A DNA stretch of 32,000 nt, from contig JAJRVL010000011.1 in assembly GCA_024277355.1 (NCBI GenBank), positions 79,365 to 111,364 of the forward strand, read 5' to 3'. The notes under the pieces are model-generated. The model searched no databases. It was not told the origin of the DNA and saw only the letters and a program-made list of their open reading frames with translations. This document shows, piece by piece, positions 1-20,209 of the stretch. Source of the DNA: an archaeon. Lineage in GTDB: Archaea; Iainarchaeota; Iainarchaeia; Iainarchaeales; 1-14-0-10-31-34. The stretch's first letter is position 1. Every line of letters begins with the position of its first letter. The translations under genes and the position numbers were made by a program.

Positions 1-1392
1 GCATCCAACAACACAAGGTTTGCCCATTCCTCTTGCAACAACAGCAGCATGAGAAGTGTTTCCTCCTCTGCAAGTTAAAATTCCTTTTGATGCAATCATT
101 CCATGAATATCTTCAGGAGAAGTTTCATGTCTGACTAAAATTACGTTTCCTTTTTCGCTTTCTTTTTCAGCTGTATTTGCATCAAAAAACATTCTCCCTG
201 ATGCAGCCCCGGGAGAAGCATTTAACCCTAAAGCAATTTCATTTAATTTTTGTTTTGGGTCAATTCTTTTATGGAGCAGTTGATTTAAATCTAAAGGATT
301 AATTCTCAGTAAAGCTTCTTGTTTTGAAATTAGTTTTTCTTCAACTAATTCAACTGCAATTCTAACTGCTGCCTGACCGGTTCTTTTTCCGTTTCTGGTC
401 TGCAGTAAAAATAATTTTTTGTCTTCAATAGTAAATTCAGTGTCCTGCATGTCTTTGTAGTGTTTTTCTAATTTTTCGCATACAGACTTAAATTCTTCAA
501 AAACTTCAGGCATTACTTCATTTAATTCAGCAATTATTCTTGGAGTACGGATTCCTGCAACAACATCCTCGCCTTGAGCATTTAACAAAAATTCTCCATA
601 TAATTTTTTTATTCCATTAGAAGGGTTTCTGGTAAAACACACTCCTGTCCCTGAAGTTTCGCCTAAATTTCCAAAAACCATTTCCTGAATTACTACTCCA
701 GTTCCCCATGAATCAGGAATTTTATTTAATTTACGATAAGTTATTGCTCGTTTATTATTCCATGAATTAAATACAGCCTTAACCGCTAAAATTAATTGTT
801 GTTTTGGTTCTTCAGGAAAAGTGTTTTTTGTTTCTTGTTCAACTAAATTTTTGTATTCTTTAATTATTTTTTTTAGTGATTCAGCAGTTAAATCACAGTC
901 TTTTGTTGTTTCTGTATTTTGTTTTTCTTTTTCTAAGATTTCTTCAAATTTATCGTGTTCTAAATTTAATACAACATTAGAAAACATCTGAATAAATCTT
1001 CTGTAAGAATCTAATACAAATCTTTCATTTTTTGTTTTTTCAATCATTGATTTAATTGTTTTTTCATTTAATCCAAGATTTAATACTGTATCCATCATTC
1101 CAGGCATTGAGGTTCTTGCACCACTTCTAACTGAAACTAATAAGGGGTTTTCTCCTGAAAACTGTTTTTTTGTTTGTTTTTCTAATTGCATTAAAGAGTC
1201 ATTTAATTCTTGTTCTAATCCTTCAGGGAAATCATTTGAATCAAAAAAATTAATACAAGCTTGAGTTGAAATCACAAAACCTTTAGGGACAGGCAAACCT
1301 AATTTAGTCATTTCACATAAATTGCTTCCTTTTCCTCCTAAAAGGTTTTTCATTTCTTTGCTTCCTTCCTCAAAAAAATAAATATACTTCAA
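1..1392 (-). CDS. ppdK: pyruvate, phosphate dikinase, N-terminal ~464 aa (C-terminus runs off the window start)
   Basis: The minus strand is open over 1..1392; I checked every codon and found no stop. It is absent from the ORF track because the window edge truncates it. The translation begins (TTG)KYIYFFEEGSKEMKNLLGGKGSNLCEM and reaches ...TCRGGNTSHAAVVARGMGKPCVVGC, the phospho-histidine swivel motif. The TTG at 1390-1392 is preceded by a GGGGGA SD-like box, and an in-frame TAA lies upstream at 1405-1407. Confidence 0.9.
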   Translation of the reverse strand, partial: MKYIYFFEEGSKEMKNLLGGKGSNLCEMTKLGLPVPKGFVISTQACINFFDSNDFPEGLEQELNDSLMQLEKQTKKQFSGENPLLVSVRSGARTSMPGMMDTVLNLGLNEKTIKSMIEKTKNERFVLDSYRRFIQMFSNVVLNLEHDKFEEILEKEKQNTETTKDCDLTAESLKKIIKEYKNLVEQETKNTFPEEPKQQLILAVKAVFNSWNNKRAITYRKLNKIPDSWGTGVVIQEMVFGNLGETSGTGVCFTRNPSNGIKKLYGEFLLNAQGEDVVAGIRTPRIIAELNEVMPEVFEEFKSVCEKLEKHYKDMQDTEFTIEDKKLFLLQTRNGKRTGQAAVRIAVELVEEKLISKQEALLRINPLDLNQLLHKRIDPKQKLNEIALGLNASPGAASGRMFFDANTAEKESEKGNVILVRHETSPEDIHGMIASKGILTCRGGNTSHAAVVARGMGKPCVVGC

Positions 1393-1533
1393 TTCAAATC
1401 CCCCTTAAACAAAATCATGTAAAACTTCATAAAAAGTATGAAAACTTAGATAAAGAAAGCTTTTAAACCAAATGTTTAACTAAAAAAAGCAATTCATTTA
1501 AACTATTAAGAACTGAATATTACAGGAGATTAA

Positions 1534-2550
1534 ATGAAAAAAATAAGTATTTTAGGTTCAACCGGAAGCATCGGAACACAGACTTTAGATGTAGTAAGAC
1601 AGCATTCTGATGAATTCAAAGTTTTAGGGTTAGCTGCGTTTAATGAAATAGACAAAATAATTGAACAAATTAATGAATTTAAGCCGGAAAAAGTCTGTTT
1701 GTTTGATGAAAAATCAGCTGAAGAGTTAGCAAAAAAAACTGATGTTGAAGTTGTTTCAGGGATGCAGGGATTAAAAGAAATTGCAGTAATAGAAGAAATT
1801 GAGCAGACAATTGTTTCAGTTGTAGGTGCAATAGGAATTGAGCCGACAATGCATGCAATAAAAAAAGGAAAAAATATTGCTTTAGCAAATAAAGAAACTT
1901 TAGTTTCAGCAGGACAGCCAATAATGAAAGAAGTCAAAAAACAAGGAATTGTATTAATGCCAATTGATTCAGAGCATTCAGCTATATTTCAATGTTTGAA
2001 TGGAGAGGAAAGAAAAAAAGTTTCAAAAGTTTTAATTACTTGTTCTGGCGGGCCGTTTAGAGGGAAAAAAATTTCTGATTTTTATAATGCAACTCCTGAA
2101 CAGGCTTTAGGACATCCAACATGGAGTATGGGTTCAAAAATTACAATTGATTCTTCAACTTTAATGAATAAAGGCCTGGAAGTATTGGAAGCAAAATGGC
2201 TGTATGATTTAGAATTAGAAGAAATTGAAGTAGTAATTCATCCTCAAAGTTTAATTCATTCAATGGTTGAATTTACTGACGGGAGTATTATGGCTCAAAT
2301 TGGAACACACGATATGCGTACTCCCATCCAATATGCTTTAACTTATCCAAAAAGATTAACAAATGAATTTCCAAGATTAAATTTATTTGAAAACAATAAT
2401 TTAACTTTTGAAAAACCTGATTACAAAAATTTTCCGTGTTTAGGTTTTGCTTTTGAAGCAGGAAAACAAAAAGGAACTTTAGCTTCAGCAATGAATGCAG
2501 CAAATGAAATTGCTGTCTGGAGTTTTTTAGATAAAAAAATCAAGTACTGA
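1534..2550 (+). CDS. dxr: 1-deoxy-D-xylulose 5-phosphate reductoisomerase; the ORF ends at an in-frame TGA and the conserved C-terminus continues to 2679
   Basis: Motifs ILGSTGSIGTQTLDV, LANKETLV, PIDSEHSAIFQCL, CSGGPFRG and HPTWSMGSKITIDSSTLMNKGLEVLEA. An AGGAG SD box sits upstream of the ATG. Confidence 0.9.
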   Translation: MKKISILGSTGSIGTQTLDVVRQHSDEFKVLGLAAFNEIDKIIEQINEFKPEKVCLFDEKSAEELAKKTDVEVVSGMQGLKEIAVIEEIEQTIVSVVGAIGIEPTMHAIKKGKNIALANKETLVSAGQPIMKEVKKQGIVLMPIDSEHSAIFQCLNGEERKKVSKVLITCSGGPFRGKKISDFYNATPEQALGHPTWSMGSKITIDSSTLMNKGLEVLEAKWLYDLELEEIEVVIHPQSLIHSMVEFTDGSIMAQIGTHDMRTPIQYALTYPKRLTNEFPRLNLFENNNLTFEKPDYKNFPCLGFAFEAGKQKGTLASAMNAANEIAVWSFLDKKIKY

Positions 2551-11940: not shown

Positions 11941-12774
11941 TTGATGACTAGAAGAAGACACTTTAAAAGAAGCCCTGCAGGCGCTTTTGGAAAAAAACCT
12001 ACTCATGGAACAGAGCTTTCTGTTGACAGGAAAATAGGCGGAGCTATAGGAAAACTAATTAAACAAAGAAAACAAGAACAAAGAAAACAAGATAAAAGAA
12101 TGGCACAATTAAAAAAAATTTCAAAAACAAAACTTACTCTTGCAGAAGAACTTGAGTTAATTAAACTAAATTTAATTAAATACCAAAAATTATTAGGAGA
12201 TACTTCAAAAGGAGTAGTTACATTAAACCTTGCAGGAATAGGAAAAAAAAGGAATCTTTCTGAAAAACAACTAAAACAAATTTCAAAACTGCTTTATGAA
12301 GGAAATATTGAAGAAATAAGAAATTACAAGATAGAAACTTTAACAGAAAAAAAAAGCACTCAACTAAAAACAATAATAAAAAAATATCCTGCAAAATTAA
12401 TCCCTAAACCTAAATCTTTTACTCATTTGCCTTCAGGAAACATGCTTGCAAGAATTTCAGTTGAATTAAAAATAATTAAACCAAGAAAACAAGTACAGCA
12501 AGTAAATAAATATGGCTCCAGAATAGGAAAACCAAAGCAAATAACAGAAGAAATTGAAACTACTAGCACAGAATTATTAGTTGAATATAATTTGAATAGT
12601 CTGCCTTCAAGAAAAAAGAAAGGAAACTTAAGAATTCAGACAATTGATGGAAAAGGAAAAGTTGGATTAATTCCTGACAGTGTTGTTTCAATAGTAAGTC
12701 AAATAAGACAAATGCACGAAGGAAAAACAGGAACTACTCTTTTTCTTCAGGGAACTTTAACTAAAGCAAACTGA
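11941..12774 (+). CDS. lysine/arginine-rich hypothetical protein (277 aa) with an HhH-like LAGIGKKR segment
   Basis: N-terminus MTRRRHFKRSPAGAFGKKP. The segment TLNLAGIGKKRNLSEKQLKQISKLL resembles the conserved core of the 16996 and 17525 paralogs. Confidence 0.5.
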   Translation: MMTRRRHFKRSPAGAFGKKPTHGTELSVDRKIGGAIGKLIKQRKQEQRKQDKRMAQLKKISKTKLTLAEELELIKLNLIKYQKLLGDTSKGVVTLNLAGIGKKRNLSEKQLKQISKLLYEGNIEEIRNYKIETLTEKKSTQLKTIIKKYPAKLIPKPKSFTHLPSGNMLARISVELKIIKPRKQVQQVNKYGSRIGKPKQITEEIETTSTELLVEYNLNSLPSRKKKGNLRIQTIDGKGKVGLIPDSVVSIVSQIRQMHEGKTGTTLFLQGTLTKAN

Positions 12775-13582: not shown

Positions 13583-14423
13583 AAGGAATTAAAAATAAAT
13601 TCTGCTTGGTCAAGAAATAGCTTTAAGAAACAAACTGTTATGTAGACAGAATATACATAATTATTAGTCTTTTTTGGCCAAAAAAGAGCCCTCAACATAC
13701 TAAAACCCTTTATTTCAGCCAGATAAGCCAATATAGCCAAACCCATCAAAAATGGCTTTAAATATGCCTTAAAAAAACTCTGCTAAAAAAATCTTATTTT
13801 AGAGTATTTCGTTAATTTAAGCCAAATTAAACTGAATTTAATAGATTTACTGGCTTTTCTTATAGATCGGCAAAGCAATTCAACCCCTCACAGATTTCCA
13901 AAAACCTCTTTGGAAATTTCCTTGATTTTTCTGGGTTTTTTCTTTATTTTTTCAACTATTTCTAATTAAGGAATTTTTTGTTTATTTTTGTTTTTTCTTA
14001 GAAGTTTTCCAGAAAATTTTTGAAAAGTTTTATTTTTTTAAGCCACTTCGCAAACTCCCTTTCTGGATTTTTTGAGCCACATCTGACTCCGCCTATTTTG
14101 TATACATAACTCTTGATCTTGCTGGCTTCTCCAAACAACCAACTTACCCGCCCCCACACTTCCACTAAAGTTCAGTTTTTCACACTTTTCAACAAAGTCC
14201 CCTCTATGAAAACACGGATAATGTAGATTATACGTGGATTCATGAGTAAATAAAGGCTCAAACAAACGCTTTAATCAACCAAACTAAACCGCTCGCCTTA
14301 AAGATAAGCGATTTTAACGGGTTTTAAGCCAGTTTTTGGTTTTGCTGCCTAAAAATTAGAAGTTAACTTTGAATAGTTAATTTTGTTTTTGATCTGTTAG
14401 AGGAACACAGACAATAACTTATC

Positions 14424-16923: not shown

Positions 16924-16995
16924 CTTTTTGTTTGCTTCAGACTAATAAAGCAAAACTATAAATTAAGCTAATTCTTTAATTATTTAAGGGATTTT

Positions 16996-17472
16996 ATGCC
17001 TGCAGGAAAAAAATATAAGCCTTCAAGTAAATTAAAAAGAAAATGGAGAAACAGTTCAGCTGGAAAAATTACTAAAGGATTATTCGGCCCAAGCAGGAAA
17101 ACAATTGAAAGAGTTAAAACAGGATTAACTTTAAGAGAAACAAAAAAACACATTAGTTTAGCCGAGGCTGTTGATTTATTAGAAAAATTAGAAAACAAAA
17201 AAATAAATGCTTCTAAATCAATGGCAATAAAATACTCTTTAGACGCCATCAATGTAAAAAACTTAAAAAAAAGACAACAAATAATAGCTGCAATAAAAAA
17301 AGCTGATAGACAAGTAAGCTTTGCTAACATGCATGGAAAAGGCGTGCCTGTGACTACTTTAAAAGAAATGACTCGTGTTTTTGTTGAAAATTTAGGTCCA
17401 ATTAAAGCGCGTTTGTTTTTTAAAATTATTACCAAAAAACAAAAAAACATCAGAATAAAAATGACGGATTAA
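16996..17472 (+). CDS. basic hypothetical protein (158 aa), MPAGKK N-terminus; tandem paralog 1
   Basis: The core SKSMAIKYSLDAINVKNLKKRQQI aligns with TAKLMGIKIALDAVGIKNPATRKKL in the next gene. Both genes are the same length. Confidence 0.6.
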   Translation: MPAGKKYKPSSKLKRKWRNSSAGKITKGLFGPSRKTIERVKTGLTLRETKKHISLAEAVDLLEKLENKKINASKSMAIKYSLDAINVKNLKKRQQIIAAIKKADRQVSFANMHGKGVPVTTLKEMTRVFVENLGPIKARLFFKIITKKQKNIRIKMTD

Positions 17473-17524
17473 AGCAAAAGAAATAATATAAGATAGACTC
17501 ATTGAATATTCAAGAGATAATTTT

Positions 17525-18001
17525 ATGCCTGCAAAAAAAAACAACACTAGTTTTTCTTATAAAAAAGTTTTAGCTGGTTTTGTGCTTAAACCAAAAAGAA
17601 AAGTAATTAAAGCAACAAGAAAAGGATTAAAAAAAAGCAAAAAAAACCTTGACCAGACTGCTAAGTTAATGGGAATAAAAATTGCTTTAGATGCCGTTGG
17701 AATTAAAAACCCTGCAACAAGAAAAAAATTAAAAAATATTTTATTAAATCATTTTGGGCAAATCGCATTAATGGTTAAACCAGGAAAAAAAACTTTAAAA
17801 GAAAAAGCAAATGATGCAAACACAATATTTAGATTAAAAGCCCGTGTAACAAATCGGTTAATAGAAGAACTTGGAAGAGAACAAGGCAAAAAAATAAGTG
17901 TGCTTTTGGCTTTAACAGAAAGTAAAAGAGATGTAATCTATCAAGAATTAATAAAAAAAGACCCGTTAATTACAAGAGCAATTAAGAAAATAAAAAAATA
18001 A
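17525..18001 (+). CDS. basic hypothetical protein (158 aa), MPAKKN N-terminus; tandem paralog 2
   Basis: See the 16996 entry. The LDAVGIKNPATRKKLKNIL segment is helix-hairpin-helix-like. Confidence 0.6.
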   Translation: MPAKKNNTSFSYKKVLAGFVLKPKRKVIKATRKGLKKSKKNLDQTAKLMGIKIALDAVGIKNPATRKKLKNILLNHFGQIALMVKPGKKTLKEKANDANTIFRLKARVTNRLIEELGREQGKKISVLLALTESKRDVIYQELIKKDPLITRAIKKIKK

Positions 18002-18112: not shown

Positions 18113-18472
18113 ATGAGTTTTTTGTTTGTGTTTTCAGTTAATTTTATTTTAAGTGTATTGCTTGATATTGTAGTTTTATTTTATGCTGCAAGATTTTTTC
18201 GTGTTCCAAGAAACTCTGCTCAAAAAGCATTAATTATAACTGTCATTGCTTCTTTGTTTGGTTTTTTTATTGGAGATGTTTTAATTAAACTTATTTTGTC
18301 TCCGTTTCTTTCATTATTGCTGTTGTTTGCTCCGTTGGTTTTAATTACGGTGATTTTTATTAGATTATTTATCATTAAATTTGTTTATAGAATTAGTTTT
18401 AGTAAATCTTTTATTATTTGGATTTTGTCTGCTGTGGTTTCAGTTTTAGTTTCAAGGTTTTTGCCTTTTTAA
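18113..18472 (+). CDS. small integral membrane protein (119 aa, ~4 TM)
   Basis: Almost entirely hydrophobic (FLFVFSVNFILSVLLDIVVLFYAARFF...). Confidence 0.55.
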   Translation: MSFLFVFSVNFILSVLLDIVVLFYAARFFRVPRNSAQKALIITVIASLFGFFIGDVLIKLILSPFLSLLLLFAPLVLITVIFIRLFIIKFVYRISFSKSFIIWILSAVVSVLVSRFLPF

Positions 18473-18510: not shown

Positions 18511-18891
18511 ATGCCGCCAAGAAAACCGTATTTCAGAAAGCACAGAAAAAGAAACACCAAGCACGCTAATTCCGATAAAAAAATTATTTTGAATCAGGTT
18601 AAACCTGGAGAAAAATTTAATTCAAAAAAACATGAAGAGAGAAGAAACAGACAATTTGGAGTTATGGTTAAACCTTCAGGCAATGAAAAAAAAAGAAGAT
18701 TTTTTGTTTCAAAAAATGAATTAGATTTATTAATTAAGCATAATCAGAATTTACCTGAATTAGCAGGCTCAAATAAAGGAAAATACCCTTATGGTTTTGT
18801 TGACAGAAGAAAAAAAACACACAAATACCAAAAAACTAAAACATTTAAAAGCGGTGGACAAAGAAAAAATAAACCCGCAAAGAAGAAATAA
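18511..18891 (+). CDS. basic hypothetical protein (126 aa), MPPRKP N-terminus; paralog of 21930
   Basis: It shares RRFFVSK and GFVDRRKK with RAFMVSE and GFYNRRKS of the 21930 gene. Both have a Lys-rich C-terminal tail. Confidence 0.55.
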   Translation: MPPRKPYFRKHRKRNTKHANSDKKIILNQVKPGEKFNSKKHEERRNRQFGVMVKPSGNEKKRRFFVSKNELDLLIKHNQNLPELAGSNKGKYPYGFVDRRKKTHKYQKTKTFKSGGQRKNKPAKKK

Positions 18892-18892
18892 A

Positions 18893-19420
18893 CTATTTTT
18901 TTATAAATTCAGTCCATTTCTTAAGTGAAGAAACTGCATTAATCATTTTAGGCATATTTTGTTTTATGAATTTGTTTTTCTCTAAATCGGTTTTGGGTTT
19001 TTGTTTTTTGTAGTTTTCATAAACTTGTTTCCCATTAAAATCAACAAAAGCAATTCTTGCACTAAAATTATTTTCTTTCAGCATCACTGAATCCCCAGTT
19101 ATTACTGCAATATGAAATGGATGAGAAAGTAAAGATTCTGCTAACTGGTTTGAAGTTTTTATTTTTTTTCTTTTTAAGTCTTTTTTTAATTCATTAAAAT
19201 CAGCAAAAAAATAAAATCCGCCTTTAGGTTTAGTTGCTTTTATTCCTTTAATTTCATTAAATTGTTCACTGAAATATTTTCCTGTCATTTCATGAATTTT
19301 TCTTGTTATTTCAAAGTATTCTTCTATTTCTTTGTTTTTTGAATAAGCAGTTATCCCTGCAAACTGAATTGGAGTTGAAACATTAGAGTAAATTGTTGCT
19401 GCAACTTTTTTGAAATCCAA
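18893..19420 (-). CDS. aminotransferase C-terminal part, in frame with 19427-20209 and separated from it by TAA plus 2 codons
   Basis: Read-through gives ...LPKNCSK*LSLDFKKVAATIYSNVSTPIQFAGITAY.... The total length of 439 codons fits a full-length aminotransferase. Confidence 0.7.
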   Translation of the reverse strand: MDFKKVAATIYSNVSTPIQFAGITAYSKNKEIEEYFEITRKIHEMTGKYFSEQFNEIKGIKATKPKGGFYFFADFNELKKDLKRKKIKTSNQLAESLLSHPFHIAVITGDSVMLKENNFSARIAFVDFNGKQVYENYKKQKPKTDLEKNKFIKQNMPKMINAVSSLKKWTEFIKK

Positions 19421-19426
19421 ACTTAA

Positions 19427-20209
19427 TTATTTTGAACAGTTTTTTGGTAAAATACAGTGCCCTAATCTATATCCCCCTGCTGACCTGTCTTTAGATAAAC
19501 CATTTGTAACAAAAGTTCCTTCTGGATAAATTTTTCCCATTGAAACAAAATTTCTGAAGTTATAGGAAGTTAAAGCATAAATTTCATCTGCGATAACAAA
19601 AACATTGTGTTTTCTGCATATTTTAGTTATTTCTTCTAATTCTTTTTTTGAATAAAGATTTCCTGTTGGATTATGAGGATTATTCAAAACAAGAATGCGT
19701 TGATCTTTATGCAGTTTAAATAAAAATCCATCTAAATCTTTTGGCTGAATTTTATAATCAAATTCTGGTTTTAAATAAAAAGTATGAAAATGTTTTTTTA
19801 ATAATTTTATTTCAGGATAATAGCCAATCCATGAAGGCGAAGGAATAATTATATCTCCTTTAATTATTTCAAAAATCATGTGAATTAAGGTTTTTGTTCC
19901 TGGGCCAATTATTATCCTTGAAGGATTAATTTCTAATCCAAAATGCTTTTTATTGAATTCTGCAACTTTTTTTCTTAATTCAATTATTCCTTGTGCATCA
20001 GAATAATGGCTTTTATCTGAGTTTTGTCCTAAGGCTTTTGCAATTACTTCTGGGACATGAAAAGGACTTTGACCAAAAGATAAAGCAGAAAAATCAAAAT
20101 TGCATTTCATTTTAGTGCATTTTTTTCTTTGTTCTGCAATTAATATTCCTGTCCTGAGGTTTTCAGGCATTTTAATTGCATTAATTTCTTTTTCAACTAA
20201 AATTTTCAT
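19427..20209 (-). CDS. class I/II (aspartate-family) aminotransferase, N-terminal 260 aa, ending at an in-frame TAA
   Basis: NNPHNPTGN and the PLP-lysine region GLSKDRSAGGYRLG. Confidence 0.8.
   Translation of the reverse strand: MKILVEKEINAIKMPENLRTGILIAEQRKKCTKMKCNFDFSALSFGQSPFHVPEVIAKALGQNSDKSHYSDAQGIIELRKKVAEFNKKHFGLEINPSRIIIGPGTKTLIHMIFEIIKGDIIIPSPSWIGYYPEIKLLKKHFHTFYLKPEFDYKIQPKDLDGFLFKLHKDQRILVLNNPHNPTGNLYSKKELEEITKICRKHNVFVIADEIYALTSYNFRNFVSMGKIYPEGTFVTNGLSKDRSAGGYRLGHCILPKNCSK

Follow-up and report, generated by a model that had tools for sequence, protein, structure and literature searches.

The window analysed here is a 32-kb piece (C9:79365-111364) of a 1.13-Mb archaeal metagenome-assembled genome (MAG) that is 96% complete and has a G+C content of ~28%. 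Two adjacent genes on its forward strand, named hereafter A and B (Table 1), each encode a very basic protein of exactly 158 amino acids (aa). The original prediction had described them as tandem lysine-rich paralogs sharing an MPA start and a helix-hairpin-helix (HhH)-like core, and had proposed that, together with a third relative at position 11941, they could represent an undescribed family of chromatin-like or nucleic-acid-binding proteins. The profile and tree comparisons reported below indicate that A and B are real homologs that diverged anciently, and that they belong to an undescribed family of basic proteins restricted to one order of the small DPANN phylum Iainarchaeota (Candidatus Diapherotrites in the NCBI taxonomy). 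Neither the HhH assignment nor the third relative at 11941 held.

The gene pair and its family

Both open reading frames (ORFs) have the N-termini originally quoted (MPAGKK and MPAKKN), and the two core segments given for them, MAIKYSLDAINVKNLKKRQQI and MGIKIALDAVGIKNPATRKKL, are present and identical at 10/21 positions. When A and B were compared directly by BLASTP, 65 residues aligned at 28% identity, with a gap of 18 residues (E 5e-4). When a hidden Markov model (HMM) was built from 36 relatives, leaving out A and B, it matched A with 81.5 bits (E 3.5e-24) and B with 47.2 bits (E 1.2e-13). Among 1000 shuffled copies scored with the same HMM, one reached 20 bits and all others stayed below 8 bits. 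That is, the held-out scores exceed those of all 1000 shuffles, which indicates that the homology of A and B is genuine. Furthermore, a congeneric MAG (G002, JBDRFE010000002.1) encodes one such protein, of 143 aa, with matches to B (E 1.5e-15, identity of about 38-39%) and to A (E 0.004). In the family tree, B and this protein form a clade with support 100/95, while the proteins nearest to A (P0014, P0010, P0011, L030 and P0009) come from other families of the order and possess, in the alignment, the longer N-terminal K-x-K-x-K-W-R...A-R-R-V-L-R-G segment of A. This pattern indicates that B is the ortholog of the 143-aa protein of G002, and that A and B are ancient paralogs and not the products of a recent duplication.

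Table 1. Position of genes A and B, their conserved segments and the spacer within the window
Feature	Position	Strand	Description
Gene A	16996..17472	+	158-aa ORF, isoelectric point (pI) 10.8, net charge +29; A-type family member
Gene B	17525..18001	+	158-aa ORF, pI 10.7, net charge +32; B-type family member
N-terminal family motif of A	17077..17127	+	Residues 28-44, GLFGPSRKTIERVKTGL; from alignments
Conserved core of A	17218..17283	+	Residues 75-96: end of helix 4, 5-residue turn, start of helix 5
N-terminal family motif of B	17579..17629	+	Residues 19-35, FVLKPKRKVIKATRKGL; from alignments
Conserved core of B	17666..17731	+	Residues 48-69, LMGIKIALDAVGIKNPATRKKL; from alignments
A/T-rich spacer between A and B	17473..17524		52 nt

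The family set comprises 40 non-identical members of 118-206 aa and, given this range, the equal length of A and B is a coincidence. The shared MPA start is likewise present in A and B but is not a family signature, an MP-K/R start being found in 10/40 members and in 14 ORFs of the window genome. The members are characterized by three motifs in a fixed order. The first has the consensus G-x-F-G-P-S-[KR]-K-T-L-x-R-V-x-x-G-L (P in 30/40 and G in 26/40 members) and closes a basic N-terminal arm. It is followed by a variable insert, by the core, R-M-A-x-K-Y-A-L-D-A-h-[GN]-[IV]-x-D-x-x-K-R-x-x-[IV], by a variable spacer and, finally, by the C-terminal motif L-x-x-E-L-G-x-x-K-x-x-x-F. In the numbering of A, the near-invariant columns are K79 (34/40), L82 (37/40), D83 (34/40), D89 (33/40) and R93 (37/40) in the core, and G134 (37/40) and F141 (33/40) in the C-terminal motif. 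The family was defined by the ordered motifs (G-x-F-G-P-x-[KR]-K...G-L; core; L-G-x-x-K-x-x-x-F), together with a pI >9.6 and a size between 118 and 206 aa. This definition takes in A (81.5 bits), B (47.2 bits) and a genuine third paralog on another contig of the same genome (C2:143928-144425), a 189-aa protein that starts with MPKPK and matches at E 2e-12; it leaves out the ORFs at 11941 and 18511.

The segment on which the claim of a relative at 11941 was based, TLNLAGIGKKRNLSEKQLKQI, does occur in the 277-aa ORF at 11941-12774 (+). BLASTP of this ORF against A and B, though, gave E values of 0.6 and 1.1, the family HMM produced no match to it even at E<=10 with filters off, and alignment with the 37-sequence family profile by hhalign yielded a probability of 0.1%. 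The relatives of this ORF are different ones; they were detected in just two genomes, G003 from the same genus and G007 from the same family, and align with residues 103-275 of the ORF. Pfam gave no match to it. Taken together, these comparisons indicate that the 277-aa basic protein is a separate orphan family, unrelated to A and B. A further very basic protein, of 126 aa (18511-18891 (+); pI 11.0), starts with MPPRKPYF and adjoins the A/B pair; it was considered as a family member and rejected, the hhalign probability being 0.08%.

A high positive charge is found in all 40 members, which have a pI of 9.65-11.6 and a lysine plus arginine (K+R) content of 16-31%. In A and B the charge is distributed along the whole length of the protein, there is no Cys and only 1-2 His are present, and both proteins are among the only 3.8% of ORFs of the window genome with a pI >10.5. 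A and B are indeed lysine-rich, with K/(K+R) values of 0.75-0.79 that are the highest of the full-length members, but this reflects their AT-rich genome: in relatives encoded on GC-richer contigs Arg replaces Lys and K/(K+R) drops to 0.42, with an equally high pI. Since pI stays high while K/(K+R) spans 0.42-0.79, the conserved trait is the positive charge and not lysine, and this conservation in sequence indicates that the family is cationic by selection. A and B show no signal peptide, membrane segment, metal or catalytic signature, and the family is taken to be cytoplasmic by default because the first two of these are lacking.

The proposal that the family is undescribed stood up to all searches made. 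Pfam gave no match for A or B and nothing consistent among 12 members scanned, NCBIfam, PHROGs and PADLOC gave scattered single matches only, and comparison of the family profiles with all sequences of the Protein Data Bank (PDB) gave zero matches or noise (E >=0.6). Foldseek searches of PDB and BFVD, described below, produced no consistent match either, and literature searches returned no description of such a family. One resemblance concerns DUF3826 (PF12875), a Bacteroidetes family of unknown function. The core of one metagenomic member, P0005, matches positions 9-72 with 26.6 bits, against a gathering cut-off of 25 bits. None of the other 11 of the 12 scanned members, A and B included, matched DUF3826, and a search of the whole window genome, including the third paralog, returned nothing at E<=10. 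Membership in DUF3826 was rejected, and the P0005 match is read as an 'L-T-D-x-x-K-R ... H-Y' helix-start pattern and not as homology.

A census of the window genome and related MAGs gave, in addition to the third paralog on C2, family members in 57/196 species-level genomes of the order (29/73 genera; 37-sequence profile), at 1-3 copies each, including 20/55 high-quality genomes. No member was found in the other genomes of the phylum (0/19), and the census thus indicates restriction to this one order. Outside of these genomes, a search of 1.84 billion protein representatives with a 3-sequence profile (A, B and the G002 protein) yielded 13 matches. One of them, P0004 (2108 aa, E 1.7e-16), was rejected as a false positive, as it consists of 17 Thr-rich repeats of ~3 bits each and was not matched by the larger profile. 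Nine members added from this search are 126-179 aa long and have the same three motifs. Members fall into protein clusters of one or very few sequences, and those that carry a name are all annotated as 'hypothetical protein'; this includes P0009, listed at NCBI as a protein of a Candidatus Diapherotrites archaeon, the genome of which falls in the same order. A homolog search with a 12-sequence profile returned only 5 proteins, and word-indexed searches started from A or from B retrieved nothing besides the query. A nucleotide-locus search with narrower alignments identified one genome locus and two loci in JGI metagenomes, and a scan of viral contigs found 0 family loci.

Two family loci have an unusual organization. 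In a different family of the order, a second tandem pair is present (L055, G058:C26, 1489-2082 and 2102-2698 (-)), the second copy of which matched at E 0.0016 with the first profile and at E 3e-7 with the larger one. In G004 (L018/L034, C30, ~1284-1710 (-)), the copy is broken right after a K-K-K-K run into two ORFs, of 81 and 67 aa, that overlap; this corresponds either to a poly-A frameshift (pseudogene or slippage) or to an assembly error.

The genes flanking family members encode housekeeping functions (RuBisCO, methionine aminopeptidase, NAD kinase, pyrimidine synthesis, Hsp20, transketolase and others), and common neighbours are shared only by close relatives, that is, genomes of the same genera or families. 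This indicates that the family gene is chromosomal and, within families, vertically inherited, and that it belongs neither to a defence island nor to a mobile element. The window and G002 are syntenic, with identities of 84% for IMPase, 90% for the XRE regulator, 76% for the DUF7504 protein and 62% for a 119-aa membrane protein, compared to 38% for the B ortholog. The terminal branches of the family tree have a median length of 1.6 substitutions per site. For six ortholog pairs, the nonsynonymous divergence (dN) was 0.21-0.87 and the synonymous divergence (dS) was saturated or undefined. Together with a copy number of 0-3 and the fact that the gene is often undetectable in close relatives, these values indicate that the family is fast-evolving and dispensable.

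Predicted structure and the helix-hairpin-helix likeness

The AlphaFold2 models of A and B are all helical. That of A, computed from an alignment of 8 sequences, has a predicted local distance difference test (pLDDT) score of 82.4 and a predicted template modelling (pTM) score of 0.70, and contains seven helices (residues 11-18, 21-30, 34-51, 56-84, 90-112, 119-133 and 135-157); the mean pLDDT of the first ten residues is 56. For B, where only 3 sequences were aligned, the pLDDT is 72 and the core helices are H42-58 and H63-83. When the two models were compared with PDB by Foldseek, the best E values were 0.59 and 0.84 and the TM-scores did not exceed 0.38, and the best match of the A model in BFVD had an E value of 0.45. 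That is, no structural neighbour was detected in either database, and the seven-helix fold predicted for A may be new.

HhH units are compact, two-helix elements, usually paired as (HhH)2, which bind DNA non-specifically through contacts with the phosphate backbone. The likeness that led to the HhH proposal is a local one. The core has two helices separated by a tight turn that opens with G/N and an aliphatic residue (I/V) after a hydrophobic position, followed by conserved basic residues at the helix junction, and the predicted geometry is indeed that of a helix, a 5-residue loop and a helix. However, none of the Pfam HhH models (PF00633 and its relatives) was among the matches at E<=1 for A, B and ten relatives. 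At the first position of the G-h-G signature, the 40 aligned members have G in 25 and N in 11 cases, A being among the latter and having no glycine in its turn. The column of the second Gly never contains Gly (0/40); its commonest residues, K, S, R, T, L and F, account for 35/40 members, and the next column is D in 33/40. In the A model, the core comprises the end of a 29-residue helix, the 5-residue turn INVKN and the start of a 23-residue helix, all inside the bundle of a seven-helix protein, and the family has no (HhH)2 duplication. Moreover, no HhH protein was listed among the Foldseek PDB matches of either model. HhH membership was rejected because the G-h-G signature is absent and neither the profile nor the fold searches returned an HhH match, and the 11941 ORF is, as seen above, unrelated. 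The probability that A and B are part of an HhH DNA-binding family with a third member at 11941 is, in our view, almost negligible. The G/N of the turn and the D that follows are best regarded as helix caps, at the C- and N-terminus, respectively. A functional analogy to HhH is possible, as R75, K79, K92 and R93 flank the tight turn at a helix N-terminus, and phosphate binding at the N-terminus of the second helix would be conceivable in the family hairpin.

Another resemblance, useful as a lead only, is to the SAP/HeH/LEM modules, through the spacing G-[LI]-x5-[KR]-x2-[LI] across a helix-loop-helix and an Ala/Leu-rich helix before it. Those modules are independent and ~35 residues in length, whereas the hairpin of the family is embedded in a larger helical protein, and the Pfam SAP model had no match among the 12 members at E<=1.

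Possible function and competing explanations

With moderate confidence, amounting to about an even chance, we propose that the family is a dispensable, non-specific nucleic-acid-binding protein. Its architecture would consist of a disordered, highly basic N-terminal arm carrying the G-x-F-G-P-x-[KR]-K motif, of the conserved alpha-hairpin and of a C-terminal helical pair hinged at the almost invariant L-G. A charge of about +30 over 158 residues, without membrane, secretion, metal or catalytic signature, makes a polyanionic partner most likely; this partner would most probably be a nucleic acid, either DNA or RNA, with no preference for particular sequences. The basic arm could take part in binding, as could the cluster of conserved basic residues at either side of the hairpin (R75, K79, K92 and R93 in A). 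Four family loci adjoin replication or repair genes (RFC small subunit, PolD DP2 with a 64-nt gap, endonuclease III, and UvrB or Nre), which is a weak hint towards DNA metabolism. At one of them (L052, G126:C19, 386-1800 (+)), the RFC small-subunit gene runs into the family gene, its stop overlapping the start of the latter, with Nre convergent downstream. In other genomes of the genus this operon-like arrangement was not observed.

As for the role, the only histone (PF00808) and the only Alba (PF01918) matches of the window genome are on contig C2, outside the window; no HU was found, and neither the histone nor the Alba profile matches A or B. Histones were detected in 168/196 genomes of the order and in 55/55 high-quality ones. 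Since the genome has both a histone and an Alba protein, and histones are near-universal in the order, the family would rather act as an accessory nucleic-acid binder or chaperone beside them than as a main chromatin protein or a core ribosomal component. That is, of the two terms originally used, nucleic-acid-binding remains the most plausible reading of the conserved charge, while chromatin-like is weakened by the presence of histone and Alba and by the patchy distribution. A bolder version, in which A and B would be founders of a new Iainarchaeota class of nucleoid or RNA architectural proteins with a new all-alpha fold, the hairpin and arm binding DNA and an A/B heterodimer supplementing histone and Alba, appears rather unlikely to us.

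Several observations weigh against a role in nucleic-acid binding. Searches of Pfam, of PDB sequences and with Foldseek gave no match to a known fold or motif for nucleic-acid binding, and the AlphaFold2 model of A comes from a shallow alignment of 8 sequences only. The genome already has a histone and an Alba of its own, and those chromatin proteins that have been characterised are, as a rule, conserved in their lineage and slow-evolving. In this order the gene was not found in 35/55 high-quality genomes; 2/5 congeners have no detectable copy, and in a third congener the copy is split by a frameshift. Finally, the proximity to replication and repair genes was noted post hoc, concerns only four loci and is not conserved even within one genus.

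Small, strongly basic and taxonomically restricted proteins, often multi-copy and coexisting with other chromatin proteins, are represented in other archaea by Sul7d, Cren7, MC1, Sso10a and the Lrs14 family, which the present family resembles in these respects. Those proteins are beta-rich or winged-helix, abundant and conserved across their lineage. In contrast, the family described here is predicted to be all alpha, is patchy (57/196 genomes) and evolves very fast, and there is no kinship in sequence or fold.

Rapid divergence could also point to a conflict or interaction protein, engaged in virus defence and counter-defence or in the interplay between a DPANN symbiont and its host, in which case divergence and loss would result from an arms race and not from relaxed constraint. 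The low identity of the B ortholog relative to its syntenic neighbours (38% vs 62-90%), the very long tree branches, the presence of 0-3 copies per genome in a pattern that is patchy within the genus, and the frameshifted copy of G004 are all consistent with this. We nevertheless consider it unlikely, as the proteins have no signal peptide or membrane segment, PADLOC and PHROGs gave no consistent match, the family is absent from the scanned viral contigs, and its neighbours are housekeeping genes and not defence islands or mobile elements. In addition, the charge and the three motifs are conserved order-wide, which points to a common biochemical task. An alternative task would be that of a lineage-specific ribosomal or ribosome-associated, rRNA-binding protein. 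Many ribosomal proteins are small and very basic with an extended basic arm, and they would generally make up much of the class of small, most basic ORFs (100-220 aa, pI >10.5), to which A and B belong in their genome. The helical prediction, the basic, low-confidence N-terminal arm of the model and the proximity of some loci to translation genes (methionine aminopeptidase twice, deoxyhypusine synthase and Dus) would fit such a role. Yet no ribosomal model of Pfam or NCBIfam matched, the family is far from near-universal (20/55 high-quality genomes) and is multi-copy in some genomes (1-3 copies), it was never seen in a ribosomal-protein cluster among the ~30 loci inspected, and it evolves much faster than its neighbours, so that we regard a ribosomal role as quite unlikely.

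Charge alone does not discriminate between polyanions, and the long helices of the all-helical models could belong to a cationic amphipathic protein that binds anionic lipid or polyphosphate and acts in remodelling or as a scaffold in the style of PspA or ESCRT-III. The noise-level Foldseek matches did include PspA, an SPX domain and a Snf7-like protein (E 0.8-5.6), but with TM-scores of 0.16-0.22 and E >0.8 these do not count as matches. Proteins of the ESCRT-III and PspA type are not known to be basic throughout, no linkage of the family to membrane or division genes was observed, and this alternative seems highly improbable.

If binding of nucleic acids by the family is true, an all-helical and apparently new fold would join the lineage-specific archaeal nucleic-acid-binding proteins, and the family would illustrate the rapid turnover of such proteins in reduced DPANN genomes. 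In practical terms, the family is now delimited by a profile and three motifs and its members are listed, the paralog set is corrected, the true third copy being on another contig, and an HhH annotation is removed before it could spread. The window genome has several orphan families of basic proteins, of which this is one, and on present evidence the importance of the family is modest.

Features around the gene pair

Similar elements precede the two start codons, AATATAAG at ~40 nt from the ATG of B and TATAAATT at ~38 nt from that of A; with these, each gene may have an archaeal promoter of its own. A scan of the locus for promoter and terminator sites of bacterial type gave no excess. A search of the window with Rfam found four tRNAs only, and nothing near A or B. 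Nearly all of gene A is overlapped by a 156-aa antisense ORF (16980-17450 (-)), a Phe/Leu-rich mirror of the Lys-rich gene, which was rejected as a real gene since conservation favours the + strand.

Next to the XRE regulator, an ORF-free module (13982-14385) is conserved in G002 (L022:3431-3833), with 66% identity over 422 nt. In G002 the B ortholog is only ~150 nt from this module, between the module and the XRE gene, while in the window A and B are located 2.6 kb beyond it, past genes for a lipoprotein and a squalene/phytoene synthase. Directly 3′ of B, the window encodes a hydrophobic protein of 119 aa (18113-18472 (+)), the G002 counterpart of which (62% identity) sits at a different relative position, evidence that the two congeners differ here by a rearrangement. 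Further downstream, a class I/II aminotransferase (18893-20209 (-)) is split into two ORFs of 260 and 175 aa, which match positions 6-233 and 242-339 of PF00155, respectively. The in-frame stop that interrupts this otherwise complete enzyme midway could correspond to a pseudogene, a sequencing error or stop-codon read-through.

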